From: Alkalispirochaeta sp.
Lineage (GTDB): Bacteria; Spirochaetota; Spirochaetia; DSM-27196; Alkalispirochaetaceae
DNA: 64,000 nucleotides
Assembly: GCA_965601925.1 (NCBI GenBank)
Contig: OZ271854.1
Location: 2,048,001-2,112,000 of the forward strand
Direction of reading: 5' to 3'
In this document: positions 16,889-38,606 of the stretch, in pieces
Layout of the letters: each line of letters starts with the position of its first letter
Numbering within the stretch: the stretch's first letter is position 1
Translations under genes and position numbers: made by a program
The notes under the pieces: model-generated
Database searches by the model: none
The model's input: the letters and a program-made list of their open reading frames with translations, nothing else
Told to the model about the DNA's origin: nothing

Positions 16889-16893
16889 ATCGC

Positions 16894-20039: not shown

Positions 20040-20101
20040 GCGCGTGAGGAATGACTCGGTACCATTGCACCTCATGCGTATGCTCACTATAGTTGGATGA
20101 G

Positions 20102-20290
20102 ATGACACCCGTCGACGGCACGCCCTGGCGTCCGCAGCAGCTGGACGAGTATCTCGACGACTCGTTCGAGCAGATCGAGGAGATGCAGCATGTGCGACTT
20201 CTCGAACGGCTCGATGAGATGAGTCGTAAGCTCTACCTTCTCGAAGAAGAGCTCGACACCATGCTGCGGCAGGCAGCGAACTACTCATAG
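20102..20290 (+). CDS. Small acidic coiled-coil hypothetical protein
   Basis: Coding-like codon usage; own promoter TTGCAC-17-TATAGT at 20065-20093. Confidence 0.55.
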   Translation: MTPVDGTPWRPQQLDEYLDDSFEQIEEMQHVRLLERLDEMSRKLYLLEEELDTMLRQAANYS

Positions 20291-20429
20291 GCGCCGGGTA
20301 GCCGACGAAGGCTTTCGATCCGTCGTTGCGGCGGGTAGGAAACATCGCCCACCGGTCTCGGTCGCATCCCGTGCGTTTCATCACATCGATGGGGCCGTCC
20401 GAACGCGAATCCTGGGGGCAAGGAATACC

Positions 20430-21395: not shown

Positions 21396-21727
21396 GGGGC
21401 GACGATATCCAACGGGTCCCATAACACATCGTCTCGGTCCTCCGGTACGGTTGTGAGAAATCGCGCACCGTCGCGTTCGTCAAACCGGTGGCCGGCTAGT
21501 CCGCTTGTGTGCTGTCGCGGATAGCGCGCAGTGATCACCGCGCGGAAGTCGATACCGCCGTCGCGGCGCGTCCGGCTCACCCCGAAAGAATCGGTACATT
21601 GCCGATCGAAACTTCGTAATCGTATCCCGCCTCTTCTACCGCATCCCGAATGTCGAAGTGATCCTCGCGGTTGTAACCGGACGACGCGGGCGCGCAGTTC
21701 CGGACGGGCCCGTGCTTCCGACGCGTC

Positions 21728-22537
21728 TCACAGTACCCGGTTCTTAAGGCGTATCGGCCCGTGGGGGTATCGAGTGATCATGTCTTGAACACGCTCCACG
21801 TCCTCGGGGTTGTCCAGATTTCGGGCGGTCCCCATACCGTACGGCACGTCCAGGCTCCTGCACTTCGATGCTCCGAGGTTGTGATACAAGAGAATTTCCG
21901 TTTCGTATGGACCGCTTCTCGACTTCGCGCTCTCTGCGCAGATGGCGACGATGTGCTCCTCCGAGTCGTTGATTCCCGGGACGATCGGACAACGGCGCGT
22001 CACCGCTACGCCGCGTTTACACAGCATGTCGAGATTCGCCTCCACCGTTTCAAGGTCCGCACCCGTGTTTTTCCGAAGGCGTAGCGAATCGCTGTCCTTG
22101 TAGTCGTAGAGATAGCGGTCGATGTACGGCAGCGAGGGCTCGATGTTGCGCCACGGTACGGCGCCGGAGGTCTCTACGGCCACGTGAATGCCCTCCTCCA
22201 TAGCGGCACGGGCGAGACGGGCGACAAACGCGGGGTGGAGAAGGGGTTCTCCGCCGCTGATGGTGAGCCCGCCGCCGGAGGTCTCGTAGTACGCCCGATC
22301 CTTTTTTACCACCTCCACGATCGCCTCGATACTCATCTGCGTGCCGACGGTACGGATCGTACCGGTGTTGGGATTTCGAAGAGCCTCGGCGCCGAAAGCC
22401 CACGACTCCGGGTTGTGGCACCACCTACAACGGAGGTGACAGCCCTTCAGAAATACGGTGGTTCGAATGCCCGGGCCGTCGTGCATGCTGCAACGGGCGA
22501 TATCGAAGATCAGCGGGTCGCCGGACGCGTTATCCAT
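21728..22537 (-). CDS. Glycyl-radical enzyme activating enzyme (radical SAM), no ferredoxin insert
   Basis: HDGPGIRTTVFLKGCHLRCRWCHNPES, TISGGEP, ETSG. Confidence 0.95.
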   Translation of the reverse strand: MDNASGDPLIFDIARCSMHDGPGIRTTVFLKGCHLRCRWCHNPESWAFGAEALRNPNTGTIRTVGTQMSIEAIVEVVKKDRAYYETSGGGLTISGGEPLLHPAFVARLARAAMEEGIHVAVETSGAVPWRNIEPSLPYIDRYLYDYKDSDSLRLRKNTGADLETVEANLDMLCKRGVAVTRRCPIVPGINDSEEHIVAICAESAKSRSGPYETEILLYHNLGASKCRSLDVPYGMGTARNLDNPEDVERVQDMITRYPHGPIRLKNRVL

Positions 22538-24851
22538 TGCTGGTTCTCTGGATAATCTCGTTCTGCGTATCTACATCCAACTCGACAAACCGAGCGCTGA
22601 AGCCGCCGCAGCGGACGATCAGGTTGCGATGGCGTTCCGGGTTAGCCTGGGCGTCCAAGAGCGTCGCTTGGTCGGTCACGGTGATCATAATCTGCGTGCC
22701 CCCGGGCCTCGCAAAGTATCCGTCCAGAAGCATCTTCACCTTCCCGCGTTCCCCGTTGAAGAGCGTCGGCGTACATTTGAGATTTTGCACGTAGCCCCCG
22801 TGGATATCGGGCCTGAACTTCGATATAGAGTTGAGCATGGCGGTTATGCCGTGCGTGTCGCGGCCGCTGTGCGGGTTGTTTCCCGGGGCGAGATGCTCGG
22901 TCCGAGCGCGCCCGTCCGGACTTGCGGCGGTCTTCAGGCCCCAAAGAGTGTTGGTGTTGTTGTTGATGTTTACCGCCAGAAAGCTGTGAAGTCCCACTTC
23001 GCGCCCTCGATTCCTGATGTAGGCACACGCGCGATCATGGAGGCGCGTCGCAATAGTGTCCACCGAGTCCTCGTCGTTACCGAACTTCGAGGCACCTTTG
23101 AGTCGCTCCGCGATGCCGGCGGGCCGCCCGTCGACGTCGTGTTCGCGCATGGATTCCGTTTCGATCCGCGCCATGAGATCCTGCAGCGTCATCATACGCT
23201 CCTCGAAGACGACCGACTCGATCGCTCGGAGGCTGTCTATTGCATTGGAGAAGCCGTAGAACTCATTGACCCCTCCGTAGTAACGGACGCCTCCTTCCAG
23301 AATCGGCTTTCCCCGGGCTATACAGTCGCGCATGAGTAGGCTCGGAAGGACGAACGAGGAGCGGGCGGCCATGAATCGGTAGCTCTCTATTTGATACCGG
23401 ACCGTGATCTCCAAGATGTGATCCAAGTAGTCGAAGTACGCTGCTTCTACCTTCTCGTAGCTGTCCAGCGTCCCAACGTCGACAAAGCGATAGTCGCCGC
23501 CGCGGTAGACTCCGTCGAACGGATCGATTCCCTTGTTGAGGGCCAGTTGGAGCACCTTGGTGAAGTTGACGCACACATTGGGCGAACCGGTCCCGCGTCC
23601 GTAGATCACATACTCTCCGCACCCGTATGGCACATACTGCTCGGCATCGTCACGGCTCACCGCCATCGCCGTCGCGACGGCCCCCACATTGACGCTATCA
23701 TTGTAGAGCATGGGAAAGGTGCATCCCCGTCCGATCGCGTCCAGAGCAAGATCGTAGATGTCTTCCGGCAGTTCGTCGTGCACCCGTAGGGTGAGTTGCG
23801 GTTTAACCGTCCCGGTACTCATGGTGGTCCGAATCGCCAGCCGCGCGACAATGTCCGCGGAGTGCGGATTTCGACGGCCGGCGCCGCCGATGATGACTCG
23901 GCCGTTGCCGCGGTTGCAGCAATCATCGATCAGATACCACAGACTCTCGAGGTACGTCGTCGCCCGCTCCTCCGTAAGCGTCCCGTCGGATAGGTCGCGC
24001 TCCAGGAAGGGGCCCAACTCGTCGTCGAGCCGTCCGTAGTTGACCACCCCTGCGAGTTGATCGTAGAGGAACATGAGCTGTATTGCGCTGTGAAGGGTCG
24101 TGGGCGGACCGGCCCGTACGGTGCGTAGCGACGATATCAACAGCGCCCGCGTCGCCTCGTCGACCTCGCCGTATCCCGCTTCGAGCATCTCGACGTAGTG
24201 CGAGACGGTGTCGAACATCAATGCCAACGCCTGAACACCGGCGGCGAGGAACTCATTGTCCGTCGAGTCCGCGAGCGCCGCTTCTATGTCGTCAAGGAGA
24301 CCCGGCAGACCCTTTTCGAGAAGTGTAGTGTGATCCAACTGGAGCCCGGAGAGTCTGGTCAGGACGAGTATCGGAGGGAGAAGGTCGGTGATGTCGCCGC
24401 CGAACGCCGAGGCGTCGTAACGGGTCGAAAAGTCATCGACCGCTTGGGTGTGGGTATCGTTGTGCTTCCAAAAGGCGATCAGACGATCGAGTCGGGCGCG
24501 CAAGTCCGCGGTCCGTGTCCGGGATCGCATCGCGGTAAGTTGGTCGACGCGGCCGTAGTACGAAGGACCGCCGCTGTTCATCTCGCGAGTACTCGCCCCG
24601 TTAATGGGCACCATGTCTTCCCGGTCGTTGGGGTCGTCGCCGCCGCCCAAATTGGCCCACTCCAGACCGTGGCCGACGGGCAACACGATGAAACGCCCTA
24701 CAAAGAGGTCGGTCCTCCGGGGCGGAACGAACACCTCGGGAAAGAGCTCCCTGAGACACACAACTTCTCTGAAAGATTTTGACATGCCGGACGTCTCTTG
24801 GTAACGCTCCGTGAAGCGTTCCATCAATGCGACGCGTCGCGTGATATCCAT
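22530..24851 (-). CDS. Glycyl radical enzyme of unknown specificity (PFL-like superfamily, not PFL)
   Basis: Gly loop LIVRCGGFS, single-Cys loop PYGCGEY, GRLD, ASPDGR; overlaps the activase gene. Confidence 0.93.
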   Translation of the reverse strand: MDITRRVALMERFTERYQETSGMSKSFREVVCLRELFPEVFVPPRRTDLFVGRFIVLPVGHGLEWANLGGGDDPNDREDMVPINGASTREMNSGGPSYYGRVDQLTAMRSRTRTADLRARLDRLIAFWKHNDTHTQAVDDFSTRYDASAFGGDITDLLPPILVLTRLSGLQLDHTTLLEKGLPGLLDDIEAALADSTDNEFLAAGVQALALMFDTVSHYVEMLEAGYGEVDEATRALLISSLRTVRAGPPTTLHSAIQLMFLYDQLAGVVNYGRLDDELGPFLERDLSDGTLTEERATTYLESLWYLIDDCCNRGNGRVIIGGAGRRNPHSADIVARLAIRTTMSTGTVKPQLTLRVHDELPEDIYDLALDAIGRGCTFPMLYNDSVNVGAVATAMAVSRDDAEQYVPYGCGEYVIYGRGTGSPNVCVNFTKVLQLALNKGIDPFDGVYRGGDYRFVDVGTLDSYEKVEAAYFDYLDHILEITVRYQIESYRFMAARSSFVLPSLLMRDCIARGKPILEGGVRYYGGVNEFYGFSNAIDSLRAIESVVFEERMMTLQDLMARIETESMREHDVDGRPAGIAERLKGASKFGNDEDSVDTIATRLHDRACAYIRNRGREVGLHSFLAVNINNNTNTLWGLKTAASPDGRARTEHLAPGNNPHSGRDTHGITAMLNSISKFRPDIHGGYVQNLKCTPTLFNGERGKVKMLLDGYFARPGGTQIMITVTDQATLLDAQANPERHRNLIVRCGGFSARFVELDVDTQNEIIQRTSNG

Positions 24852-24995
24852 CGTCGGCCCTCCGCAATATAAGATTATCGTAAACCGAGGATCTCGATCG
24901 CTTCCTCCTCCGGAATGATGTATACTGAACTATATTGACGATATTCTGTCGGAAATGCGTCAGCGCGGATGCACATCGATAGGGGAAAGCGGTAC

Positions 24996-25844
24996 ATGAA
25001 GCCTCCCGACCGCGGAGAAACGGCGGTTCTGCACCTCCGTGATTACGTACACGGCCGAGAACCGTCGATCCACATCGCCCGCTCGATCTACTCGCGTACC
25101 CGGCGTCATCCCTTGCACGCGCACGACTTTTACGAGTTTTACATCATAGAAGAGGGACGGCTCCGTCACCAACTCAACGGGCGCGAGGTGAGTCTGGAGA
25201 AGGGGGCATTCCAGATGATTCGTCCCCTCGACATCCACGCCTTTGAGGGACTGAGCGACCGAGAGAGCGTCTTGTTGAACGTCGCCTTCTCTCCCGCCGT
25301 CTACGATCGCCTCGCCGCCGCGTTCGACGTCGGGCTTATTGAGCGCCCCGTACCCGTATATCTGACGTCGGGGTATCTCGCCCGTCTCCGAGAGCGTGTG
25401 AAGTGGATAGAGCGCGGAACACTGAGCCCGTACCCGTTTTTGGCGGCGCTGTTCATCGAGTATGTCATCGGGGCGCGACACGCCCGGGAGGAGGCGGAGA
25501 CCGACGTCGTGCCGTCGTGGCTCAAAACGTCGATGAATGCGATGGAGAGCCCGGACAATCTCCGCGGCGGTCTCCAGCGCTTCGTCGAGTTGTCGGGGAA
25601 ATCGCAGGAGCATCTCACCCGCTCTCTGAAGCGACTCCTGGGTATCACGCCGTCGGCGTGGATCAATGCGCATCGCCTCGAGTGGGCGCATAGGATAATC
25701 CGCGAAACGGACCGCACCATCCTCGATATCGGTTTTGAGGTGGGGTTCCGGTCCGAGTCTTACTTCTACCGGTTATACAAGGCCTATTTCGGGACGACTC
25801 CGCGCCGCGAGAGACGGCGAGAGGCGACTTCGAGCGCACCGTAG
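24996..25844 (+). CDS. AraC-family regulator, ChbR/CelD-like
   Basis: Cupin HAHDFYEF..HQLNG; SGKSQEHLTRS; DIGFEVGF..YFYRLYKAYFGTTP. Confidence 0.88.
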   Translation: MKPPDRGETAVLHLRDYVHGREPSIHIARSIYSRTRRHPLHAHDFYEFYIIEEGRLRHQLNGREVSLEKGAFQMIRPLDIHAFEGLSDRESVLLNVAFSPAVYDRLAAAFDVGLIERPVPVYLTSGYLARLRERVKWIERGTLSPYPFLAALFIEYVIGARHAREEAETDVVPSWLKTSMNAMESPDNLRGGLQRFVELSGKSQEHLTRSLKRLLGITPSAWINAHRLEWAHRIIRETDRTILDIGFEVGFRSESYFYRLYKAYFGTTPRRERRREATSSAP

Positions 25845-26444
25845 GCCGGTGCTCGACACATGGTTGTTACGGACGAACTACCTCGCGAGCGTAGACCGCC
25901 GTCGGTGTCCATTGCGGTTGAAGGTAGTGCCATCCCGTCTTGTTCTCCTCCCGCAACTCACATGGAGCCGGTAGGACGCGTTTGTACACGCGAGTTGCCG
26001 GGGTAGGGTCGGTCTCGCTGTGCATCACTATCTCCGAGGGAGCGTTCTCCGTCTCTGCGAGGGCGAGCGTCACGGCGTCCGGTGAGTCGGCGAGCCCCAT
26101 CGCGTGCATCGCCGCCGGAGAGGCGAAAAAGATGGGACTTTCGAAGCGCAGCAGCCCCCGCGTCTCTCCGTCTTTCCGTGCGACCCCCGTTCCTCATTGG
26201 CGTCGTTCTTCATGGAAGAAACGCATCGTCGCGTTCTCGTCCCGGCAGCGTCAAGAATAATGATTGTACTCGATTCCGTCCGGTACTCGTGTCGGAAGCT
26301 GGTGTCGGCGCCTTGCGAGATGCACCGATGTGGTGCTGAGTCTTCGCCCGGCCCGGCCGGTCTCCAATCACCGATACACCGTTCGTCGATGAGCGTCTTC
26401 ACCGCGGTTGCGGGCGGTCGCTCGCGGGGCTACTATGAGCGTGC

Positions 26445-27626
26445 ATGGAGTTGCAACACACACGCGACTTGCGTCTTCACAAACTCGACCGCGTCATTCG
26501 GCTCTTCTCACGCGCCAAAGGCTGGACGCGAAAAGAGTTGGAGATCGAGACGGGCTACAGCTACGGAACGATTTCGAATATTCTCCAGACCCTTCTTTCC
26601 GATGGTATCGTTCGCGAGGAGAGCATTCAGGAGTCTTCGGGCGGCCGAAAACCGCACATATACACCCTCGACGGAAGTCGAGCCCGCTTTCTTTCGCTCG
26701 ACATCGGCACGGCACGCATAAAGTGGGCTCTTCAGGATGTGCGGGGTATGTCGCTGGAGCGGGGAACCGTTACGGACAATCCGGCGGTCCCGCTGCAACA
26801 GGTCGTCGAAGAGGCGTTTCGCGACGCCCGCCGCGGAATCGAGCGTCAAGGACTCTCGATCGAACTGCTTCATAGCGTCGCGATCTCTATCCCCGGCCAC
26901 TACCGACCGACCGACGATTGCATCGTCCGCAGTTCCACGGAGCGAATCGGCTCTCTCAAGCTGGCCGAGATGCTCGACGAGTTTTCACGAACGCGAATCG
27001 TGATCGAGTCCGACGCGCACGTCGCCTCGCGCCGCGATATTGCCACGATGATTCCCGGTCTCGACGGCGCCGCCGTTGCGTTATACCTCCTTGTGACCGA
27101 GGAGGGGGTGGGTTCGTCTATTGTGATCGGCAATCGCGTGCACTACGGCGCCGGCGGTCACGCCGGTGAGGTGCATGTGCTTCCGGTGCGAATCGGAGGC
27201 GAGGTCAGACCGCTCGGTGAGTTTTTGGATGTACAGGTCAACAAGGACTACGCGGAGACGGCTCTTGGACGTGCGTTTACTATCGTCGAGTACGTCGATT
27301 TGCTGGTCGAAGGCGACGCAGCGGCGGTAGCGCGCTACCGAACGATTGTCGACGCCTTTGCCGAGGCTATCTATCTACTCGACAATATCCTCGACCCCGA
27401 TTTCGTCATTATATCGGGTATCTACAACGCGTTGGGGTCGCGGTTGGCCGACGATATTCGCGATGCGCTCGGTAGACGGTCCGAGCCGCACCTCATCGAT
27501 AATCTTCAGCTCCTCTTGGCACCCTCGGATCCCGATCTCATGCTGAACGGGTTGGCGTACCTACAGGTAGAGGAGTGGCGTAAGGATCGAGTGACGCAAC
27601 TGCGACAGCCGAGTGACGTGTTGTAG
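26445..27626 (+). CDS. ROK-family transcriptional repressor
   Basis: N-terminal wHTH with SSGGRKP, LDIG, ISIPG, ESDA, GVGSSIV, GHAGEV. Confidence 0.88.
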   Translation: MELQHTRDLRLHKLDRVIRLFSRAKGWTRKELEIETGYSYGTISNILQTLLSDGIVREESIQESSGGRKPHIYTLDGSRARFLSLDIGTARIKWALQDVRGMSLERGTVTDNPAVPLQQVVEEAFRDARRGIERQGLSIELLHSVAISIPGHYRPTDDCIVRSSTERIGSLKLAEMLDEFSRTRIVIESDAHVASRRDIATMIPGLDGAAVALYLLVTEEGVGSSIVIGNRVHYGAGGHAGEVHVLPVRIGGEVRPLGEFLDVQVNKDYAETALGRAFTIVEYVDLLVEGDAAAVARYRTIVDAFAEAIYLLDNILDPDFVIISGIYNALGSRLADDIRDALGRRSEPHLIDNLQLLLAPSDPDLMLNGLAYLQVEEWRKDRVTQLRQPSDVL

Positions 27627-27760
27627 GCGGCACGTATCACCGACGGAGGAGCGGCGGCGTCGGGCCGTCGGCGCCGGACAAACAAGACGCGTGGCGAGGG
27701 CGTTGTCCGTCGTGCACGATCATCCCGGGACGTTGCGCTCGCCGAAACGGCAGACGACGC

Positions 27761-29914
27761 CTACGTCGCTACGACGTCACCCTCGAAGCGGTGTCGCTCA
27801 TTACCGTTCACCGCCACCATGACCGCCGCCTGCGTGTTTTCTACCTCGTTTACTCCCTTGAATAGAGCGCTTCTCAGCCGACCACCGTGCACCGCGAGGG
27901 CGCCGGCACAGCGACCGGGGCCCTCAAACGCGATCACCGTTCCGGCCACATTGAAGTGTACGTTGGTGGGCGTGGCGGAGAACTTGAAGAAAAAGATGAA
28001 CTCCTCGTCTTCGCCCGCGTAGCGAAAGAATCGTATCCCGGGTGCCGACGGCACGCCGGGTGTGATCCGCCGGGCGGCGAGAAACGCCGGAAAGGCCGAA
28101 GGACGTTCGATGTGCGCCGACGGAATGTCGATGAGTCGATCTCCGTCCGCCGCAAGGGGGGACAAGGACTCACCGTCCCACGTCCGACGCGGGCGATTCC
28201 CGCCGTAGAGGAGGACACCACCGGCGTCCAGATAGTTCTGCAGCGCTCGATGGAGCGGCGCCGATATGCGTTCGCCGGCGACCACTACGAGCGGCTCGGG
28301 CGCGATTGCGGCGAGGTCGTCTCGTCCTTCGAGTCCGATGAGCCGGGGTATGTAGCCCGCCTCTTGAGCGGCGCAACTGAGCCGCTCCATCTCCGATCCC
28401 CCGGCACGGATACCGTCGATACCGCTCCCATCTCGCGCCCAGCTCATTACCGCGGCGTACGGCGCCGGTACGGCAAAGGCGATGTCGCTGATGCGACCGG
28501 CGGCGAGCAACCCCTTCCCCTCGGCACCGAACCACCGGTTGATGTCCTTCATGGCCGCGTACATCGACGTGGTTGTTCCATCGGCGCGGATCGGCGCATC
28601 GGACGGAAATGTCGAATGCTGCAGTTTGGTCATGCTATCCAGGTCGTCGTCCCAGTAATCGTGTTGTACCGCGCAGAAGACCGTATAGCCCGTCCCACCC
28701 GCGGCTATCGATAGGAGCGTCTGGAAGAACGGCACAAACGGAGCCGCGGAAAAGGGATGATAGAGCTTTGCAAACCCCCAGTTCTCCTCTAAGTTGATGC
28801 CGCGGCACCGGGCCGCGGTATTTACATAGCGGTTGAAGACGTCGTTCGGCACGGTAGACCTCGACGTATCGATCGTCGAGGGGTCATCGATATTGTACGC
28901 CGCGACACCGAGCCAACTGATGAAGCCGTAGTGGTAGATCTCGTCGTCGCGTTCCAGACGGTTCATGTGAAGCCACCAGTCCGCGTACCGTTTCGCCGGG
29001 CGAGTGCGCGTGCGCTGCGTCTCGCGCAGAGGTACGCCGTGCGTTCTCTGGGGGACGTTTTCCTCGATCGGCGGTGTGATTCCCGCGTGGTTGGATAGGT
29101 GAGGCAAATCGACTCCCAACATCTCGCGATATCGTCTGTACGTCTCTCTCCGCAGCCACCATTGATAGTCGGACCACCGGATGAGCGACGCCGCGGCGTC
29201 TCGTGCGCCGGTGGCGATCGGTACGATACGCGGTATCTGCCCGAGGACGACGCCGGTCGCCCGGCGATACTCGGCGATGGAGCTCTCTTCGTAGCCCAGC
29301 GTCCACGGCGGACTATTACTCGTGCAATACAGCGTCTCGTCGTTGATCTGGACGCCGATAACCGGCCCCGATGGGTAGACGAACGGCCGAAGGAGCGATC
29401 CTACCGCATTGAGCCACGTTGCGGCCATTCGTATGTATTCTGAGTCGAAGGGGGCGGGAAGTATGGCCCCGTCGTACTCCCATCTCACCGCCCGTCCCCG
29501 ATAGTTGAGCGCGGGTGAGATCCGTGACGTGTACGACGGACTGGCCGCGTCCGGGAGACCCCCGATATTGAGTTCCGAGTGAACGAAGGGTCCCGGCTTG
29601 ACGATGGCGTGCATGCCGGTGTCGGCGACCGTGGCGATGAATCCCCTTACATCGCGATTGGCCGCCGTCGTACCGGAGAAGTCGAATTGTTGTGGATCGT
29701 TCGCTACCTGGTGGTGACGCCATGGAACGTAAAACGTGACGGTATTGGTGCCGGCCGCGCGGATGAGATGCAGTGTTCGGCTCCACGACTCCCGGCGATC
29801 GCGATAGTATTGATACTCCGCCGCAATTACGAAGTGCGGATCGCCGTCTATGATGAAGTGGCCGTCTCGATACGCGACCGGTTCATTCGCCGAAGTATCG
29901 ATCATGTTTTTCAT
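27761..29914 (-). CDS. GH35 glycoside hydrolase, exo-beta-glucosaminidase (GlmA)-like / beta-galactosidase family
   Basis: YQYYR, GTNTVTFYVPW.HH, FDFSG, KPGPFVHSE..GGLP, QINDE acid/base motif. Confidence 0.82.
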   Translation of the reverse strand: MKNMIDTSANEPVAYRDGHFIIDGDPHFVIAAEYQYYRDRRESWSRTLHLIRAAGTNTVTFYVPWRHHQVANDPQQFDFSGTTAANRDVRGFIATVADTGMHAIVKPGPFVHSELNIGGLPDAASPSYTSRISPALNYRGRAVRWEYDGAILPAPFDSEYIRMAATWLNAVGSLLRPFVYPSGPVIGVQINDETLYCTSNSPPWTLGYEESSIAEYRRATGVVLGQIPRIVPIATGARDAAASLIRWSDYQWWLRRETYRRYREMLGVDLPHLSNHAGITPPIEENVPQRTHGVPLRETQRTRTRPAKRYADWWLHMNRLERDDEIYHYGFISWLGVAAYNIDDPSTIDTSRSTVPNDVFNRYVNTAARCRGINLEENWGFAKLYHPFSAAPFVPFFQTLLSIAAGGTGYTVFCAVQHDYWDDDLDSMTKLQHSTFPSDAPIRADGTTTSMYAAMKDINRWFGAEGKGLLAAGRISDIAFAVPAPYAAVMSWARDGSGIDGIRAGGSEMERLSCAAQEAGYIPRLIGLEGRDDLAAIAPEPLVVVAGERISAPLHRALQNYLDAGGVLLYGGNRPRRTWDGESLSPLAADGDRLIDIPSAHIERPSAFPAFLAARRITPGVPSAPGIRFFRYAGEDEEFIFFFKFSATPTNVHFNVAGTVIAFEGPGRCAGALAVHGGRLRSALFKGVNEVENTQAAVMVAVNGNERHRFEGDVVAT

Positions 29915-29920
29915 GACAAA

Positions 29921-29945
29921 ACTTATTATTAGACTTAAAATAAGT
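29921..29945. promoter_or_regulatory. 25-bp inverted repeat, probable ROK operator
   Basis: ACTTATT-N11-AATAAGT between the divergent GH35 and ABC genes. Confidence 0.7.
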
Positions 29946-29946
29946 A

Positions 29947-29975
29947 TTGACAAGTGAAATTACCGAACCTACCCT
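29947..29975 (+). promoter_or_regulatory. sigma70 promoter of the ABC operon
   Basis: TTGACA-17 bp-TACCCT; AAGGAGG RBS downstream. Confidence 0.7.
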
Positions 29976-30001
29976 GAAATGGAGGCCAAGTAATAAGGAG
30001 G

Positions 30002-31291
30002 ATGAGGATGAGACGATCGTTGTGTTTCACGATGTGTACGGTCCTTATCGCGCTACTCGTCGTATCCGGTGTCGTCGCCGGGGGACGTGGTGAGGATACG
30101 GGGACGGTGTTGCGGATAGCGTCCGCGATTCAAGGTCCGGAAGAGATCGCAATATACGACGACGTAGCGGCGACCTTCGAGGCGGAGTATCCCGGCGTGA
30201 CCGTCGCGTGGGATCGTTCGACCGGCGACGACTATCAGTTCACCGGCTTGCCGTCGCTCCTGGAGAGCGATACGCCACCCGATATCTATTTCGAATGGGG
30301 GGGTGACCGCGTCGCCTCGCGCGCAGTCGACGGATACGCGCTCGCGATTAACGATCTCGCCGACGAACTGCGCCCGTTTATCAACGAGTCGGCGTGGAGC
30401 GGAACGATGGTGAATGGTGATGTGTATATGATTCCCGACAACCAAGATATCACCATCATGATGTGGTACGATCGCGTGTTGTTCGAGCGACTCGGCCTGG
30501 AGCCGCCGGCGACGTGGGAGGAGTTTCTCGCACTCTGTGAAGCGCTTTCCGGAGCCGGGATTACGCCGATTCTCATGGGAAACGCCGATGCATGGGTCGC
30601 CGGAAACTTCGGCGGGTTGTTTCTCTCTCGCTGGGCCGGAGACGAGTATACCGATCGCGTGTTGCGCTTGGAGCCGGGAACGCAGCTTAACAATGACCTA
30701 TTTGTGGAGGCGCTCCAGTTTGCTTACGAACTCGGTCGGCGCGGCTACGTCAACCTCGACATGAACACGTTGGGATATGAGTCGAGTTTCGCGCGGCTAT
30801 TTGACGGCTCCTCAGCGATGTATCCACTCGGTACGTGGTTCAGAGACGAAGTCGTCGCTCAGTTCTCCCGCAATCCCGACGGAGAAGAGTGGGACTTCTT
30901 CAACCTACCGCCCTTTCCCGGTGGACGCGGAGCGCCGAGCAGCGTCATGGGTCTCAATACCGGATGGATCATTAACGCCGACACGGCGCACCGAGATTTG
31001 GCATACGCATTCATGGAGGTTATGATGCGTGGAGAGTTCCAATCGCGTTTGGCGGAAATCGGTCGCATTACGACGCGTACCGCCTCGCTGGAGGATTCCG
31101 AGAGCGAGTACGTACAACGAGTCGCGGCGGTTCTCAATGATACGCCGCAAATCGTGGCGCCGCCGGACACGGGATACAATCTGGAAATAGCGGCCGCGCT
31201 GTACGAGGCTATCGCAAAAACGTTCGCCAACGCCGAGACGCCCGAGGAGGCGCTCGACGCCGCGGAGCGCAAGATCCAGCATCTACGATAG
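30002..31291 (+). CDS. Carbohydrate ABC transporter substrate-binding protein
   Basis: Signal peptide, PPDIYF, GDVYMIP, PATWEEF, SBP family 1 layout. Confidence 0.92.
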   Translation: MRMRRSLCFTMCTVLIALLVVSGVVAGGRGEDTGTVLRIASAIQGPEEIAIYDDVAATFEAEYPGVTVAWDRSTGDDYQFTGLPSLLESDTPPDIYFEWGGDRVASRAVDGYALAINDLADELRPFINESAWSGTMVNGDVYMIPDNQDITIMMWYDRVLFERLGLEPPATWEEFLALCEALSGAGITPILMGNADAWVAGNFGGLFLSRWAGDEYTDRVLRLEPGTQLNNDLFVEALQFAYELGRRGYVNLDMNTLGYESSFARLFDGSSAMYPLGTWFRDEVVAQFSRNPDGEEWDFFNLPPFPGGRGAPSSVMGLNTGWIINADTAHRDLAYAFMEVMMRGEFQSRLAEIGRITTRTASLEDSESEYVQRVAAVLNDTPQIVAPPDTGYNLEIAAALYEAIAKTFANAETPEEALDAAERKIQHLR

Positions 31292-31313
31292 TCCGTGGCG
31301 TCCAGTACAGGAC

Positions 31314-31336
31314 CCCGGGCCGCACAGGGGCCCGGG
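31314..31336 (+). other. GC hairpin after the SBP gene (possible mRNA stabiliser)
   Basis: CCCGGGCC-N7-GGCCCGGG. Confidence 0.45.
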
Positions 31337-31377
31337 CTGCACCGTAAAACGGCGCTGCACCGAGAGGCTCCCCAGTA

Positions 31378-32247
31378 TTGAAACGACGAGGAATAGAGCC
31401 GTATCTCTACACGATTCCCGCCTTTGCCCTCTTTGCGATGGTGATTCTGGTTCCAACCGCTTTCACCTTCGTCTTCAGCGTCGTCGAATGGAGGCGTTTT
31501 CAGCCGCTCGATCTCGGAACCCTGGAGCATTATCGCCGATTGTTCGCCGATCGCACGCTCGGTATCGCCTTCGGCAATAACTTCGTGTACATCTTCTACA
31601 CGATTCTGCTGGAGGTGGGGGCGGGATTGTTTTTTGCCGGCATCGCGATCCATCTTCGGAAGTCGCTCATGTTTCGCAGTTTGGTTTTTGCCCCGGTCAT
31701 TTTGCCCTCGATCGTTACCGGCGTCTTGTGGCGTCAAGCCCTCGCGTATCAGTCGGGATTGCTGAATGCCGCGCTTGCCCGATTCGGTGTCGCGCCGATT
31801 CAGTGGCTCGGTCCGCCGTTCACCGTCCTGTCGGTATCGATCGTGTCGGGGTGGATCTGGTCGGGCTTCTTCATGACCGTGTTCTACGCCGGTTTGACGC
31901 GCATTCCGGGGACGCTCATCGAAGCGGCCGTTATTGAGGGTGCATCGCGAGTGAGAATTTTCGTTCGGATTCAACTTCCCCTCATTCGGAATTTGCTCGT
32001 ATTGGCGCTCTTGATCGTCTCCACCGGCGGTTTTAAGGGGTTCGATTTGTTCAAGATTCTTCTGCGTCGCGATCCTCTGGAATCGGGAGTGGTGCTGCCG
32101 ACGTATCTGGTACGCGTCTTCTTCGAAAATCAAGATATCGGCTACGGATCGGCCGTCTCTGTGTTGCTCACGCTGGTCGTGCTCGCGATTATGGGCGTCA
32201 TTGCCCTCATTCGACGCGTGTACGTCGGCGAGATGGAGGAGTATTGA
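31378..32247 (+). CDS. Carbohydrate ABC transporter permease
   Basis: EAA loop LIEAAVIEGAS, GLLN, GYGSA. Confidence 0.93.
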   Translation: MKRRGIEPYLYTIPAFALFAMVILVPTAFTFVFSVVEWRRFQPLDLGTLEHYRRLFADRTLGIAFGNNFVYIFYTILLEVGAGLFFAGIAIHLRKSLMFRSLVFAPVILPSIVTGVLWRQALAYQSGLLNAALARFGVAPIQWLGPPFTVLSVSIVSGWIWSGFFMTVFYAGLTRIPGTLIEAAVIEGASRVRIFVRIQLPLIRNLLVLALLIVSTGGFKGFDLFKILLRRDPLESGVVLPTYLVRVFFENQDIGYGSAVSVLLTLVVLAIMGVIALIRRVYVGEMEEY

Positions 32248-32248
32248 G

Positions 32249-33061
32249 GTGCGTGGACGGGTGATCACCGCGGCGGCGGCGCTATTGATCGTTCTCTATG
32301 CGCTCCCTATCGCATGGATGTACGTCTCCGCCACTCGGACCGATGCCGATTTCATAGCCGACCCTCTGGGGCTCCCCGAGTCGATTCATGTAGAAAACTT
32401 CGCTCGGGCGTATCGGACGGCGGAGATGACGCGCCATTTCGCGATATCTATCGTCGTAACGTCCGTCTCGACGGCGATCGTAGTGTCGGCTTCGTCAATG
32501 GCGGCGTTCAGCTTCTCCCGTTTACAGTATCGTTTTCGGGGTGCGTTGTTCAGTATCTTCTTCGTCGGACTCATTTTACCGATTCAGAGCTTCATTGTCG
32601 GACTCTTCGTCTTTTTTCGTCTCTTGGGACTGCTCAACTCGATATGGGCTATGATACTGCCGACCGCCGGGATCGGGCTTCCCATCGCCATTCTGATTAT
32701 GAAGTACTACTTCGATACCATGCCGACGTCCCTGGAAGAGAGCGCCTACATCGACGGCGCCTCGTCTTTTCTCGTCTATCGCGCCATCGTGATGCCGATC
32801 TCATCGGCGATTATCGTGACGGTAATCATTTTTTCCGCGATCAATGTGTGGAACGAGTTCCTGATTCCCTTTGTGATGGTGCAGAGCCGGAACATTCGGC
32901 CGCTTACCACGAGTCTGTACGTGTTCTCTACGCGCCACGCCGCGCAGATCACGCTGACGATCGCCGCATTGGCGATCATCGCCACACCGATGTTCGCGGT
33001 GTACTTCCTCTTCCAGCGTCGCGTGCAGGAAGGTATCACCGCCGGAGCGCTCAGGGGGTGA
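32249..33061 (+). CDS. Carbohydrate ABC transporter permease
   Basis: ENF, LEESAYIDGAS, WNEF, GALRG terminus. Confidence 0.93.
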   Translation: MRGRVITAAAALLIVLYALPIAWMYVSATRTDADFIADPLGLPESIHVENFARAYRTAEMTRHFAISIVVTSVSTAIVVSASSMAAFSFSRLQYRFRGALFSIFFVGLILPIQSFIVGLFVFFRLLGLLNSIWAMILPTAGIGLPIAILIMKYYFDTMPTSLEESAYIDGASSFLVYRAIVMPISSAIIVTVIIFSAINVWNEFLIPFVMVQSRNIRPLTTSLYVFSTRHAAQITLTIAALAIIATPMFAVYFLFQRRVQEGITAGALRG

Positions 33062-33063
33062 CG

Positions 33064-33822
33064 ATGTCGCGAGTCACTTCCCTCGTCGAGAGACCGGACA
33101 TTCTCGCGTGCCGTCGTATCCTGTGCGTACAACCCCACCCCGACGATATGGATATAGGGTGGGGCGGGACGGTGGCGCGACTCGCGGACGCCGGCGCCGA
33201 GGTTATGTATCTATCGGTCACCGACGACGCCGCGGGGCTAATCGGCGAGGACGCCCGGCTTTCCGTAGCCGAACGCACGGCACTCCGTAAAACTGAGCAG
33301 GAGCGTGCGGCGTCGTTACTGGGCGTCGCCGACCTTCTCTGGTTGGGGCTTCCCGACGCCGGGCCCTGGCGCGTTTATGACGTGCGCAATGGGATCGTCG
33401 ACGCGATACGCCGAGTGCTGCCCGACGCGGTCGTCACCGTCGATCCGTGGCTTCCCTATGAGGCGCACGCCGATCATCGCAAGACGGGACTCGCCGCGGC
33501 GGAGGCGATGATTCTCGCCCGATTTCCGGCGGTCGGTACCGTGCCGGTACCGCGCGGACTCGACGTACGCGCCGGCGGCTTCATCTTCACCGCTCGTCCC
33601 AACACCGTGGTTGATGTCGGGCGGTATCGCGACCGGAAGCTGCAAGCCATTCGTGCCCATCGCTCTCAGTTCGACGACCGCGCAATGCGGGAGCTCGAGC
33701 GCGTAGACTCCGCGCGCGGCGCCGATCTCGGAGAGACGATCGGCTGTCGGTACGCCGAGGGGTGCAAGGTCGTCAGCCCGGAGATCGCGCTCCATATTCT
33801 GCCCGAAGCGGCCGAGCTTTGA
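33064..33822 (+). CDS. PIG-L/LmbE deacetylase, diacetylchitobiose deacetylase (Dac)-like
   Basis: QPHPDD, DPWLPYEAHADH, HRSQF. Confidence 0.9.
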   Translation: MSRVTSLVERPDILACRRILCVQPHPDDMDIGWGGTVARLADAGAEVMYLSVTDDAAGLIGEDARLSVAERTALRKTEQERAASLLGVADLLWLGLPDAGPWRVYDVRNGIVDAIRRVLPDAVVTVDPWLPYEAHADHRKTGLAAAEAMILARFPAVGTVPVPRGLDVRAGGFIFTARPNTVVDVGRYRDRKLQAIRAHRSQFDDRAMRELERVDSARGADLGETIGCRYAEGCKVVSPEIALHILPEAAEL

Positions 33823-33849
33823 CACGCGACGCAGCATAGGAGGTTACCG

Positions 33850-35190
33850 ATGAATCTGGCGATATCAGGAGGCGCACCGGTACGGGATTCGCGAGTGCGC
33901 CCGTGGCCCCGGTGGCCGGTGTGGGACGACCGGGATCGTGAACGCCTCGAGCGGGTACTTGAAAGCGGCGTCTGGTCGTACAACGGACCCGCCGAACGCG
34001 AGGCGCTGGCGGCGCTCAGACGGTTTTTCGACGTGCCGCACGTCGTGCTGGCGATGAACGGTACGGCGACGTTGCAACTGGCCCTAGAAGCGCTCGACAT
34101 CGGGTTCGGCGACGAAGTCATCGTGCCGTCGTTGACGTGGCAGGCAACCGCCGCGGCGGTACTGGATATCAATGCCGTACCGGTTCTGGTCGATGTCGAT
34201 CCGAAGACGTGGTGCGTCGACCCCGCCGCGGTGGAGGCGGCGATCACGCGTCGAACTCGTGCGATCCTTCCGGTTCATCTCTACGGCGCCATGGCCGATA
34301 TGGACGAGATCATGAGGATCGCCGCCGCGCACCGTATCGCGGTAGTCGAGGATACCGCGCATCAGCACGGAAGCGAATGGCGCGGAAAGAAGGCGGGTGC
34401 GATCGGCGATATCGGCAGCTTCAGTCTGCAGCTCTCTAAGGTTCTTACCACCGGCGAGGGCGGTATCCTCACTACCGGTAGTCGCGATTTGTGGGTGAGG
34501 CTCGACGCGTTGCGCAACTGCGGCCGCCGTCCCGAGGGGGCCGCGTCGGACGAGGATAAGGGCGGCGGACAGTACGGAAGCGAAGGCGATCTCGTCCAGT
34601 CGGGCAACTATCGGATCACCGACTTCCAGGCGGCTCTCCTCATCGGCGCGCTCGAACGACTCCCGGAACAGAATAGACGGCGCGAGGAGAACGGCCGCTA
34701 CATCGACGCGCGTCTCGCCGACATCACCGGGCTGGAGCCGATCGTACCGTATCCTGGGCAGAATCGCCGCGCATACTTCAACTACGCCTTTCGCTACGAC
34801 GGAGATCGCTTCTCGGGCGGAGGGATTCCCGCGTCGATCTTCCGGGAGGCGCTGAGCCGCGAGTTGGGAATCGAGTTTGAAGCGTGCTACGAGCCGCTGA
34901 CCGACTGCAGCTTGTATCGTCCCCAGACCAAGCGAAGGTATCGCATCACCCGAGAACACTGGCAAGCGATCGATCCGTCTCGATTCGAGACGCCGTCGGC
35001 GGTGCGCGTGTTTCGTCATGAATCGGTAGTCGTGCACCACCGCATCCTTTTGGGCGGAAGGGACGACATGGACCAGATCGCAGAGGCGATACGGCGTCTC
35101 GAGGCCGCGGGAGACGAACTGCGCGAGATCGCGGCTCACCGTTCCTTCGCCGGAGACGCGGAACCGGGCCGAGGTTCGCGGTATGGGTAA
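33850..35190 (+). CDS. DegT/DnrJ/StrS PLP aminotransferase, aminocyclitol (StsC/BtrR)-like
   Basis: WPRWP, NGT, PVHLYG, EDTAHQHG, SLQLSKVLTTGEGG (PLP Lys), C-terminal HWQAIDPSRF. Confidence 0.9.
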   Translation: MNLAISGGAPVRDSRVRPWPRWPVWDDRDRERLERVLESGVWSYNGPAEREALAALRRFFDVPHVVLAMNGTATLQLALEALDIGFGDEVIVPSLTWQATAAAVLDINAVPVLVDVDPKTWCVDPAAVEAAITRRTRAILPVHLYGAMADMDEIMRIAAAHRIAVVEDTAHQHGSEWRGKKAGAIGDIGSFSLQLSKVLTTGEGGILTTGSRDLWVRLDALRNCGRRPEGAASDEDKGGGQYGSEGDLVQSGNYRITDFQAALLIGALERLPEQNRRREENGRYIDARLADITGLEPIVPYPGQNRRAYFNYAFRYDGDRFSGGGIPASIFREALSRELGIEFEACYEPLTDCSLYRPQTKRRYRITREHWQAIDPSRFETPSAVRVFRHESVVVHHRILLGGRDDMDQIAEAIRRLEAAGDELREIAAHRSFAGDAEPGRGSRYG

Positions 35191-36403
35191 TCCGGCGGTG
35201 CTGGACACCTTCCCCCTCGCACCGACCGAGGAGTCTCACAGAGACGCCCGACGGTCGGCGTCGGACGAGTCGATCCGGTTCGGCCTGATCGGTGCCGGCT
35301 ACATCGCCGCCTATCACGCCCGGGCGATTTTGGCGACCGATAGCGCGGAGCTGGTATGGGTCGCGAGCCGAAGCGGGGAGAGTAGTCGTGCACTCACACG
35401 TACAATCGGTGCGGGCCGGTCCACGATCGATCTCCAACGCGTTGTCGACGATCCTTCGGTCGACGCGGTCGTCGTCGCGACTCCCAACGGTCTCCACGAG
35501 GAGCACGCCGTGGCAGCGTTGCGGGCCGGAAAGGCCGTGCTTGTAGAAAAACCTCTCGCCGCAACCTTGGAGGAGGCGCGCCGGATCGCTGCGGTGGCCG
35601 GAGCGGAGCGAGGTTTTCTGCAGGTCGGACACATGTGGCGACACGACCTGGAGGCGCAATGGATACGAGATAGCGTCGCGGCCGGCGAAATCGGGCGCGT
35701 GTATCGAAGCGTCTCGTACGGGATCCATGAGCGGTGGGGACCCGATGGCTGGTTTGTCGATCCGAAGCTCGCCGGGGGCGGTGCACTGCTCGACATGGGA
35801 GTACACGCCGTCGACACGACGCGCTTTCTCCTCGGCGATCCGATACCGCAGTCGGTATACGCCCGCATCTCGACGGAGCACGGCGACTATGCAGTGGACG
35901 ACACCGCACTGGTGATCGTCACCTGGGAAGACGGGGTCGTCTCAACGATCGAGTCGGGGTGGTGGCAACCCCATAGCGACGGACCCGAGGCCGCCACCAG
36001 ACTCTACGGAACGCACGGTTTTGCGTCCCTGTTTCCGACCTACGTTGAGGCGATCGATCGTTCGCCGAATCGATTTGACGGCTCACCGTACGACGCTCCG
36101 AAACGGGTGCAACCGACCTTCCCACCTCGGAGTGAACACTGCGACCAGCGAATGTACACCGCGCAGATCGCCGCATTTGTCCGAGACCTTCGGCGGCATC
36201 GACGCGGCGAGGCGGAGCACGGGCGGGAAGATTCGCACCACCGATCGCGTACGTTCCCCGGGACGGCGGACGAATCGGAAATGGCGGCGGGCCTATCTCA
36301 TGCACCGTCGTGGGAACCCGGACTCACCGTGATGGAGATTGTGGACGCCGCATACCGATCGGCGGAGAGCGGCCGGACGGTACGCTTGTCGAACGGGGGG
36401 TAG
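35183..36403 (+). CDS. Gfo/Idh/MocA family NAD(P)-dependent oxidoreductase
   Basis: GAGYIA, ATPNGLH, EKP, GGGALLDMGVH. Confidence 0.92.
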   Translation: MGNPAVLDTFPLAPTEESHRDARRSASDESIRFGLIGAGYIAAYHARAILATDSAELVWVASRSGESSRALTRTIGAGRSTIDLQRVVDDPSVDAVVVATPNGLHEEHAVAALRAGKAVLVEKPLAATLEEARRIAAVAGAERGFLQVGHMWRHDLEAQWIRDSVAAGEIGRVYRSVSYGIHERWGPDGWFVDPKLAGGGALLDMGVHAVDTTRFLLGDPIPQSVYARISTEHGDYAVDDTALVIVTWEDGVVSTIESGWWQPHSDGPEAATRLYGTHGFASLFPTYVEAIDRSPNRFDGSPYDAPKRVQPTFPPRSEHCDQRMYTAQIAAFVRDLRRHRRGEAEHGREDSHHRSRTFPGTADESEMAAGLSHAPSWEPGLTVMEIVDAAYRSAESGRTVRLSNGG

Positions 36404-37136
36404 AGCGCCTACCCGGCGACCGTCGGAGTCACATTGGGGCGGCGGCCGGCGCCTTTGCCCGGATTATCCCACGTCCTCGATCAGCAAGTACGACGTCCGG
36501 CGGGTCGTCGTACTCGCCCGACGATTTTCGACGCCGACACGTACTCTCTTGGGCCGCGAATGCGGTCCATCGGCCGATACCGCCCCTCGCCGGACGCTTG
36601 GTCGAGGCGATCAACACGAACAGCGGTTCCTGGATGGCGGCTGTACTCGAGTCCGTTCGCGGCAAGGTCAAGCAGATCGGCGCACTCTCGAGCGAGGAGT
36701 TTTTTTCTAGGAAGCCGCCCTCGGAGCGCTCCATCGGGCCTTCTTCGACGGAGTGGGAGACATACCTTTTGCGCTTCCGTCCGTCGACTACGGCGCGAGG
36801 ACGATCCCCCGCTTTTATGGCGGGCTCTCCCTCATTTCATCATGCCGAGAGCCGCTGTCCGTCCGGTGTCGATGAGCGCCACGAGACCCTCTCCCCCTGC
36901 GTATCGTCGTCGCAACGGCGTTGGAACTCTCCACGCCGGCTCTCACCGCGAATACACGTCACTTTCAATCCATCCCCGAACTCTCGCCGGTGTAATCCGT
37001 AGGCGGCGCGTCGCAGCGTCGTCGCCCGTTGTGGGCTGCGCGCCGTCGTGGCGGCGGCGATACGGCCGACCCGGCGACTACACGCCTTGATCGCGGCGAT
37101 ACGATATGCCACCCTGGGCGACATCGGAGAGGAATC

Positions 37137-38123: not shown

Positions 38124-38198
38124 GCGCATTCCCCGCCTCCGGCATGCGTGCTAAGCGGCGGTCGTGGAAACTCAGGGCGTCCGTGCCGTGCGAAGACA

Positions 38199-38591: not shown

Positions 38592-38606
38592 ACCGGTGTC
38601 TCCTTG

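Follow-up and report, generated by a model that had tools for sequence, protein, structure and literature searches.

Two separately regulated modules, one with a glycyl radical enzyme and one probably for glucosamine-type sugars, appear to share a spirochaetal gene block

We propose, with moderate confidence, that an eleven-gene block of Alkalispirochaeta sp., probably a free-living spirochaete, consists of two neighbouring, independently evolving and separately regulated units, here termed modules A and B; this confidence applies jointly to the division and to our readings of both modules. Module A would comprise an unstudied oxygen-sensitive radical enzyme plus its own regulator, and module B, an operon that is widespread and previously undescribed, probably feeds on glucosamine-type sugars and removes the amine by an aminotransferase and a reductase. 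The first-pass annotation of the window, i.e. the whole analyzed stretch of 64,000 nucleotides, had described the block as an amino-sugar catabolic island built around a glycyl radical enzyme (GRE). Its eight right-hand genes indeed appear to form an amino-sugar catabolic unit, but a role of the GRE as its centre is not supported.

All eleven genes were located in one contiguous block, intact and with open frames. As the annotation had also stated, no sugar kinase, deaminase or ABC ATPase gene is present among the ORFs scanned within the block; the single match to a MalK-type OB domain in the genome lies elsewhere, so that the block's lack of an ATPase gene finds its ordinary explanation in a shared ATPase. 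The region 19500–39000 was contained in one 106-kb contig in two of four runs, which speaks against a misjoin without being independent support, since all four runs represent one sample, perhaps the source of this assembly. In six of eight congeners, a gene that here lies at a distance of 25 kb from phoH comes within about 10 kb after it, and all eight lack block genes at the phoH site. The site downstream of phoH may thus be a variable one, at which modules A and B have accumulated. Two LuxR-type genes, 54% identical to each other, flank the whole block, an arrangement that a single insertion could explain. Modules A and B are not distinguished by codon usage.

The division of the block becomes apparent from the neighbourhoods of its genes. 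Among 162 loci of GRE homologues, the activase is found in 128 and the AraC regulator in 70, and ROK, GH35, PIG-L and aminotransferase genes in none (0/162). Reciprocally, GRE, activase and AraC are missing from the neighbourhoods of orthologues of the module B aminotransferase (DegT family; 0/15), the GRE clade is missing from the DegT-orthologue genomes searched whole (0/9), and 13 GRE-clade genomes contain no DegT match above 40%. All eight module B genes recur without the GRE in three congeners (G402, G409 and G413), in which other genes are situated upstream of ROK, where a 600-bp gap (25845..26444) forms the junction of the two modules here; since the operon is divided over contig ends inside genes in these congeners, we infer its continuity. 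The regulation of the modules likewise appears to be separate. A 25-bp AT-rich imperfect palindrome (29921..29945) between the GH35 and SBP genes of module B, which are divergently oriented, is conserved in all four genomes aligned, and a matrix built from those same four sites scores 46 here, 23 at the next best position in the genome and −4.9 at the best position in the GRE–AraC region, so that the scan reveals no module B operator in the GRE–AraC gap. The palindrome is probably the operator bound by the ROK-family repressor (26445..27626, plus strand, PF00480), orthologues of which (32–34%) are present in the three congeners and in genome G419. The comparison includes many short loci, and several of the genomes reach a completeness of no more than 80–86%. 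For the seven closest relatives of the GRE (47–59%), the context was read in one case; the two nearest (58–59%) lie outside that sample and could be linked to module B. As both families are rare (GRE clade in 2 of 400 genomes of the phylum, DegT orthologue in 4 of 60 relatives), their failure to co-occur rules out an obligate linkage, not a recent local recruitment.

Hence, the reciprocal counts and the missing operator speak against the view of the GRE as the centre of an amino-sugar pathway. Of two outcomes named beforehand as speaking against it, one was largely borne out, as none of the GRE-homologue loci contains GH35, deacetylase or aminotransferase genes; the other, a GRE within a characterized cluster, was not. 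A single pathway, in which the GRE would dehydrate or deaminate an amino sugar or cyclitol supplied by the importer, the deacetylase and the GH35 and would feed the aminotransferase and the dehydrogenase, is in line with the adjacency of both modules in one contig, the flanking LuxR-type pair with its possible single insertion, the genome's lack of NagA and of a clear NagB, and a CxE motif compatible with 1,2-elimination (PMC13450708). We nevertheless regard it as very unlikely, considering the neighbourhood counts, the completeness of module B without the GRE in three congeners, the absence of the operator upstream of the GRE, the 600-bp gap and the separate regulators; neither conserved co-occurrence nor shared regulation was found for a GRE-centred island. 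It is highly improbable that this lineage has added the GRE module to its amino-sugar operon, with the GRE as a radical amino-sugar deaminase (hydrogen abstraction at C3, ammonia loss from C2) that would substitute anaerobically for NagB alongside the transaminase. Such a combined radical pathway would be the more striking one if true, but it lacks support.

Module A, read as a unit of its own, would be an AraC-controlled GRE–activase pair of a large uncharacterized CxE clade. The GRE (22530..24851, minus strand, 773 aa, PF02901 and PF01228) carries the motif Cys411-Gly-Glu413 and Gly750, and C411, E413 and G750 are present in 120 of 120 aligned homologues, which bears out its earlier designation as CxE-type. 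Its end is overlapped by 8 nt by the glycyl-radical activating enzyme (21728..22537, minus strand, 269 aa), which has a CxxxCxxC motif at 33–40 and scores 244.6 bits against TIGR02494 (cut-off 174.35). With the Cys loop, the C-terminal Gly loop and the adjoining radical-SAM activase, the protein can be assigned by sequence to the GRE superfamily (PFL-like), and its Cys-x-Glu loop, shared with the CxE 1,2-eliminases GD, PD, HypD and CutC, suggests a place among the 1,2-eliminases and isomerases that this motif defines (PMC13450708). It passes no NCBIfam GRE cut-off (HypD 200 versus 1100, CutC 174 versus 1050, PFL2-3 subfamily 251 versus 678). Membership in a characterized cluster (HypD, CutC, HpsG/HpfG, PflD, PFL, IAD or HPAD) was rejected on these scores and on an identity of 24% to both YbiW and PflD; the GRE forms a separate branch in a quick tree (100% SH-aLRT), and was rightly called undescribed in that it stands outside every characterized cluster tested. 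Its Cys-x-Glu loop and C-terminal Gly align to Cys441, Glu443 and Gly786 of YbiW, but two parts of YbiW, a loop of 13 residues and a His-containing segment of six, are deleted in it and replaced by an Arg/Asn-rich set (R166, R318, E530, N630, N631 and N634). According to a 2026 review, entire GRE clades lack validation.

The AraC-family regulator (24969..25844, plus strand), divergent from the GRE, had been taken as a ChbR-like clue to amino sugars. We rejected an identity as ChbR, as it remains below the NF007633 cut-off (107 versus 264 bits) and is not linked to a chb operon. Moreover, 32 of 73 GRE-linked AraC proteins outscore E. coli ChbR against this regulator, ChbR ranking 33rd of 75, so that the resemblance belongs to the GRE module. 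Both GRE-subclade neighbourhoods read (L011 and L008) are PTS loci, and 23 of 131 dereplicated GRE-clade loci have GH92, GH38 or GH130 neighbours. For the GRE, the most likely reaction is a radical 1,2-elimination or a ring-opening, unrelated to module B; its substrate would be a sugar that is probably phosphorylated. For this widespread clade without assigned reaction, a search could start from its neighbours (PTS, mannosidases, PhyH).

Module B, in turn, may be described as a catabolic operon under ROK repression, its substrate being an amino-glucoside that is N-acetylated and beta-linked; an ABC importer that relies on a shared MalK-type ATPase would take this substrate up. The importer is represented by a sugar-binding protein (SBP; 30002..31291, plus strand, PF01547), with orthologues of 52–65% in four relatives and weak, mixed solved matches to xylo- and chito-oligosaccharide binders, and by two permeases (31378..32247 and 32201..33061, both plus strand, PF00528). 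The PIG-L/LmbE deacetylase (33064..33822, plus strand) contains HPDD at 25–28, HADH at 135–138 and a C-terminal His244, all kept in three of three orthologues checked, in agreement with the HxDD + H zinc motif of LmbE-like deacetylases (PMC4101496, PMC9779004). Its best solved matches are the Pyrococcus diacetylchitobiose deacetylases (Dac; E 1e-48 to 1e-50, as against 1e-13 for the next family), and it would deacetylate the non-reducing end and so expose the 2-amino group there. The GH35 hydrolase (27761..29914, minus strand, 717 aa; a start at TTG 29953 was replaced by the ATG at 29914) could then release the 2-amino sugar via its Asp-Glu motif, since D192-E193, found as Asp-Glu in 120 of 120 homologues, align to Asp178-Glu179 of GlmA. 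This pair is described as recognizing the 2-amino group at the acid/base position, which is otherwise Asn-Glu (PMC6566704). The best solved match of the GH35 is an exo-beta-glucosaminidase (E 5e-23, N-terminal 200 aa), and its sequence makes this the probable activity. Against the GlmA family model NF041127 it reaches 84.5 bits (cut-off 1500), the profile search aligning two partial stretches only; Glu347 (the nucleophile), Trp308 and Tyr379 of GlmA fall outside the alignment, and an invariant EEN at 376–378 is a candidate.

The BtrR-like aminotransferase (33850..35190, plus strand, PF01041) would transfer the amino group onto a 2-oxo acid, and the Gfo/Idh/MocA oxidoreductase (35183..36403, plus strand), which overlaps it by 8 nt, would reduce the resulting keto-sugar. 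The PLP residues Asp168 and Lys197 are present in 120 of 120 homologues, and the best solved matches over the full length are 2-deoxy-scyllo-inosose aminotransferases (E 1e-88 versus 3e-52 for the next), by which the protein classifies, on sequence, with BtrR/RbmB (5w71/2c7t and 5w70, as we take them to be). The family clues of the first-pass annotation were thus sound for aminotransferase, deacetylase and GH35. The best single-sequence match of the Gfo enzyme is 2glx, a C2-keto reductase (1,5-anhydrofructose reductase); a profile of ten orthologues places DgpA, 6nor and 6jw6 (the latter two presumably GenD2 and KanD2) on top with E 1e-44 to 1e-47, and 1,5-anhydrofructose reductase at 2e-38. 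With GenD2/GenS2 and KanD2/KanS2, which carry out oxidation and transamination at C3'' of aminoglycosides, the module B pair shares a Gfo dehydrogenase and a DegT PLP enzyme, a likeness of pair type; in contrast to these and to BtrR/RbmB it stands in a catabolic setting without aminoglycoside scaffold genes. No 2-deoxystreptamine biosynthetic genes are found in the block, and none were recognized in the 15 DegT-orthologue loci.

Like the chitinolytic pathway of Thermococcus and Pyrococcus, module B combines a Dac-like PIG-L, an adjoining GH35 with Asp-Glu and a sugar ABC importer, but it is bacterial, its GH35 aligns with GlmA over part of the length only, and its block holds the aminotransferase–Gfo pair in place of a kinase or deaminase. 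It differs from the E. coli chb operon in having ABC instead of PTS, PIG-L instead of ChbG, and ROK control, the ChbR-like AraC being part of the GRE module. Among the 15 DegT-orthologue genomes, a Gfo partner lies near the aminotransferase in 11 and an amino-glucoside-type hydrolase adjoins it in ten, from three unrelated families: a GH35 with Asp-Glu in three relatives; a CsxA-type GH2 (exo-beta-D-glucosaminidase E 3e-143 versus 5e-30 for mannosidases) with the motifs RLEG, SD and N[ST]E in six of six; and, in G419, a GH4 6-phospho-beta-glucosidase, 36% identical to ChbF, which is paired with the deacetylase and a BadF-type kinase. That three hydrolase families converge on one pair leaves a short and testable list of substrates, and the five loci without such a hydrolase and four without a Gfo orthologue indicate that the clade may serve several substrates.

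The substrates and the direction in which the pair works are inferred. We tentatively and slightly favour C3 of a 2,3-diamino-2,3-dideoxyglucose unit, yielding glucosamine, over C2 of plain glucosamine, on account of the top profile matches of the Gfo enzyme, the documented C3'' pair and a NagB over cut-off in six of six GH2-type genomes; in the same tentative sense, module B may be a multi-phylum pathway recycling 2,3-diamino-glucose from microbial cell-envelope glycans. Awkward for a route that ends in glucosamine is that NagA has no match in this genome and NagB none over cut-off, the candidates being weak NagB-like and SIS-type ones. The same absence would suit a pathway for chitin or chitosan oligomers, in which a C2 transamination would turn plain glucosamine into glucosone and a reduction would then give glucose or mannose, in place of the Thermococcus kinase and deaminase. 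The Dac-like and GlmA-like front end, the CsxA-type partners and the best single match of the Gfo enzyme point in this direction, 1,5-anhydrofructose reductase being active on osones. This route appears possible but doubtful, given NagB in the GH2-type genomes and the C3 oxidoreductases heading the profile; we know of no DegT enzyme that acts on C2 of a free aldose, and our literature search found no transamination route there.

The BtrR-type enzymes, which lead the solved matches of the aminotransferase by a wide margin, could also suggest degradation of an aminocyclitol or an aminoglycoside-type pseudo-disaccharide (inosamine, 2-deoxystreptamine) by reversed BtrR chemistry, as could the paralogous locus in this genome. 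We consider this unlikely, because the partner hydrolases are of beta-glucosaminide type and aminoglycoside links are alpha, the deacetylase fits Dac far better than MshB or BshB, and inositol-pathway genes were not seen in the loci listed; nothing but the BtrR likeness speaks for the earlier cyclitol/deoxy-inosose idea. It is quite unlikely, too, that the pair is biosynthetic and makes a 3-amino sugar, either kanosamine-like or a diamino-glucose, out of salvaged glucosamine or glucose. NtdA/NtdC is a dehydrogenase–aminotransferase pair working in that direction, but the block contains importer, hydrolase, deacetylase and repressor genes and no nucleotidyl- or glycosyltransferase or exporter. 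GenD2/GenS2, documented for C3'' amination, also runs that way, but the isolated pair is reported to give no aminated product unless a pulling step is present (PMC4340712).

In the open-licence literature, we found no description of a route that removes the amine of a glucosamine-type sugar by transamination and reduction. The BtrR-like clade comprises 1749 proteins at E<=1e-80, many of them automatically labelled as aminoglycoside biosynthesis enzymes, and module B, if read correctly, would give this large clade a catabolic role. The paralogous locus mentioned above consists of DegT, Gfo, SBP and MocR-type regulator genes.

All eleven genes named in the first-pass annotation are in place at 21728–36403 with open frames, and this stretch lies in one contig in two of four runs, all four of which come from a single sample. 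The block begins with a leftward activase–glycyl radical enzyme (GRE) pair and, across a gap at 24852–24968, a divergent AraC gene (module A), followed by a 600-bp gap to module B, in which a ROK gene and a leftward GH35 gene are convergent and a rightward run encodes a solute-binding protein (SBP), two permeases, a PIG-L protein, a DegT-type aminotransferase and a Gfo protein with successive gaps of 86, −47, 2, 27 and −8 nt. That the block lacks an ABC ATPase is accounted for by the one MalK-type domain found in the host genome, which sits outside the block. The host genome (5.05 Mb, 96.7% complete) probably belongs to a free-living spirochaete, as the names of close homologues suggest. No block gene deviates by more than 1 SD from the genome mean in codon usage or GC3, and neither measure tells the two modules apart. 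No repeat marking their junction was found, the main direct repeats being two flanking LuxR paralogues, and scans for promoters (5 versus 4.5) and terminators (9 versus 11.1) remained at chance level. ESM Atlas yielded generic family names only.

The first-pass annotation had read all eleven genes as a single GRE-centred pathway for amino sugars or aminocyclitols. We compared this proposal with 162 loci carrying GRE homologues, of which 160 came from genome and metagenome scans and two from a phylum search. A single-protein scan of genome contigs with the GRE gave no match, but an alignment-based scan did recover loci. An activase is present in 128 of the 162 loci, an AraC gene in 70, a distant Gfo gene (23–34%) in 23 and ABC genes in 7–8, whereas ROK, GH35, PIG-L and aminotransferase genes were found in none (tblastn, E≤1e-6). 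Restricting the count to loci of 12 kb or more (98 in number) gives the same picture (activase 87, AraC 54, Gfo 22, the four module B genes 0). After dereplication to 131 loci, with neighbour clusters labelled by one Pfam-scanned representative each, AraC accounts for 60, a PhyH-family protein for 34 and GH92/GH38/GH130 for 23. The PhyH-family (Fe/2-oxoglutarate-type) protein is frequently encoded between AraC and GRE (loci L012–L170), so an enzyme sensitive to oxygen has a neighbour whose fold uses it. As in the window, the AraC and GRE genes mostly run divergently, and 32 of 73 GRE-linked AraC proteins outscore E. coli ChbR in similarity to the window AraC.

The reciprocal comparison yields the same separation. 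Among 60 relatives, four carry an aminotransferase orthologue (58–66%). Three of them, the congeners G402, G409 and G413, have the complete set from ROK to Gfo (eight genes, order unchanged), in copies split at contig ends within genes; what precedes ROK there is unrelated. In the relative G419, a GH4 and a BadF-type kinase substitute for GH35 within an otherwise identical set. The uncharacterised CxE clade that holds the window GRE is absent from these four genomes (best matches 31–34%). Wider searches raised the count to 15 genomes (51–67%), six genomes returned twice being counted once; the DNA around the aminotransferase gene has no match to GRE, activase or AraC in any of the 15, and the nine genomes searched whole contain no member of the GRE clade. 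Conversely, thirteen GRE-clade genomes have no aminotransferase match above 40%, and among 21 genomes of the family the GRE clade is represented in G404 alone and the aminotransferase in four different genomes. At E≤1e-120 the aminotransferase was not found in 301 genomes from the phylum of locus L016; plasmids gave one match (39.5%) and viral contigs two (31–35%). Since both the GRE clade and the aminotransferase are rare, these zero counts exclude an obligate linkage, not a local recruitment. The gene content reported in the first-pass annotation stands, but its interpretation is only partly supported: the block probably consists of two uncharacterised systems, separate from each other, rather than of a single pathway.

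For module B, the hydrolases and the deacetylase indicate the class of substrate. Asp192-Glu193 of the window GH35 align with Asp178-Glu179 of GlmA, and Asp-Glu is found in 120 of 120 homologues; in GlmA this Asp takes the place of the β-galactosidase Asn and contacts the 2-amino group, according to PMC6566704. The PIG-L protein has Pyrococcus Dac as its best match (E 1e-48 to 1e-50, next family 1e-13) and contains the HxDD+H motif, as defined in PMC4101496 and PMC9779004. In six genomes from the phylum of locus L048 (Calditrichaceae), a GH2 gene is directly followed by those of aminotransferase and Gfo, one copy being truncated where its contig stops. A search with one of these GH2 proteins gave exo-β-D-glucosaminidase at E 3e-143 versus 5e-30 for mannosidases, and all six keep motifs aligned to CsxA Glu394, Asp469 and Glu541 (positions hand-counted on the alignment). 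The GH4 of G419 is of the 6-phospho-β-glucosidase type (36% to ChbF). In total, ten of the 15 aminotransferase loci, representing about three independent lineages and not ten, pair with an amino-glucoside-type hydrolase from one of three unrelated families, and 11 keep the Gfo orthologue. Five loci have no such hydrolase: G639, the short contig of G537 and three from planctomycetes, which carry a ceramidase-like protein. A pairing of DegT and ceramidase-like protein also occurs in the host at G000:C1 about 963900–973600 (L194), where the DegT paralogue is 38% identical and the neighbours comprise two Gfo proteins, an SBP and a MocR-type regulator; the pairing recurs in three planctomycete loci. 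By cut-off or by genomic context, three of the window proteins fall outside the GlmA, BtrR and ChbR families in the strict sense, to which the first-pass annotation had likened them.

Over its full length, the aminotransferase is closest to 2-deoxy-scyllo-inosose aminotransferases (E 1e-88, against 3e-52 for the next match). In a profile search with ten Gfo orthologues, DgpA, 6nor and 6jw6 come out on top (E 1e-44 to 1e-47), with 1,5-anhydrofructose reductase in tenth place; the former are glycoside C3 oxidoreductases, among them GenD2 and KanD2. GenD2 and GenS2 turn the C3'' hydroxyl into an amine, only with a further enzyme pulling the reaction, as described in PMC4340712. A similar pair working in reverse would strip a 3-amino group. 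Since the hydrolases appear to read a 2-amino group, the sequence comparisons point to 2,3-diamino-2,3-dideoxyglucose units as candidate substrate, with glucosamine as the product. Such units occur in some lipid A and diacetamido glycans. The front end of module B would then work like the Thermococcus Dac/GlmA route and its back end like GenD2/GenS2, but in reverse. A search of the open-licence literature found no published description of this gene set or route.

Glucosamine as the product fits the NagB scores of the six GH2-type genomes, all of which exceed the cut-off (against a background of 111 of 167, a count including the unpublished G1294 and G1349, otherwise used only in phylum denominators); in these six, the idea of module B as a plain NagB replacement failed. 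Nearly as likely is that plain glucosamine is transaminated to glucosone, instead of C3 of a diamino sugar being attacked, because the host has no NagA match and no NagB over the cut-off, only weak NagB-like and SIS-type candidates, and because the best Gfo match in a single-sequence search is a C2-keto reductase. The PF01182 match of the host sits behind a glucose-6-phosphate dehydrogenase-like ORF.

Between GH35 and SBP, a 25-bp AT-rich imperfect palindrome at 29921–29945 is kept in four of four genomes. By analogy to NagC/Mlc sites, we read it as a putative ROK operator. With a matrix built from the same four sites, the palindrome scores 46, the next-best site in the genome 23 and the GRE–AraC region at most −4.9. 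The real start of GH35 is 29914, and the palindrome accounts for the apparent conservation of an N-terminal peptide in the longer ORF. The second-best site (score 23) lies just upstream of the SBP gene of L246 (G000:C1 about 4052600–4060500), a locus that also encodes a GH4 and a weak NagB-like protein (89.9 bits versus 326).

Cys411-Gly-Glu413 and Gly750 of the window GRE align to YbiW Cys441, Glu443 and Gly786, and C411, E413 and G750 are retained in 120 of 120 homologues. In the accessible part of a 2026 GRE review, CxE is the mark of eliminases and isomerases, YbiW and PflD are the only sugar-acting GREs named, and the words 'inositol' and 'mannose' are absent (PMC13450708). The window GRE scores far under all NCBIfam GRE cut-offs and is 24% identical to each of E. 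coli YbiW and PflD; as judged by alignment, it lacks the 13-residue loop and the His-bearing segment of YbiW and has a conserved Arg/Asn-rich set instead. Its closest relatives, one of them QUI21030.1 from Vallitalea pronyensis, are seven proteins at 47–59% identity, the other 112 matches listed being at 33–43%; 392 proteins match at E≤1e-50, some of them other GREs. A quick tree of 30 hand-picked rows (15 of 151 loci, 10 of 120 proteins, the window GRE and four outgroups) places it in a 12-row subclade (support 100, SH-aLRT only) within a clade apart from YbiW/PflD. Both subclade contexts examined are PTS loci, which suggests a phosphorylated sugar as the GRE substrate. The Holdemania locus (L011:1854–12622, GRE 47%) encodes RpiR, GRE, activase, PTS, a HAD phosphatase, glycerate kinase and GH38, a set resembling mannosylglycerate utilisation genes, and the other (G293, GRE 42%) PTS, a class II aldolase and a PfkB kinase. 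Three further GREs are encoded in the host genome (G000:C1 about 112300–114300, 69900–71800 and 2790700–2792400), the first related to YbiW (57% identity), the second to PflD (44%) and the third PFL-like.

The gene phoH is present in 16 of 16 congeners. An orthologue of window gene 45494 follows it after ~0.3–10 kb in six of eight congeners examined (contig or region ends before it in the other two), compared with 25 kb in the window, and no block genes were found at the phoH site of these eight; hence, the block sits in a variable site. Membrane-anchored LuxR-type paralogues at 20430–21395 and 37110–38123 (54% identical, same orientation) bracket the block, which is compatible with one insertion or several alike. 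Further genes at 14723–20039 and 11361–11446 comprise an XPB-like helicase with an adjoining 727-aa gene (no Pfam match), a PIN-PhoH gene and tRNA-Glu.
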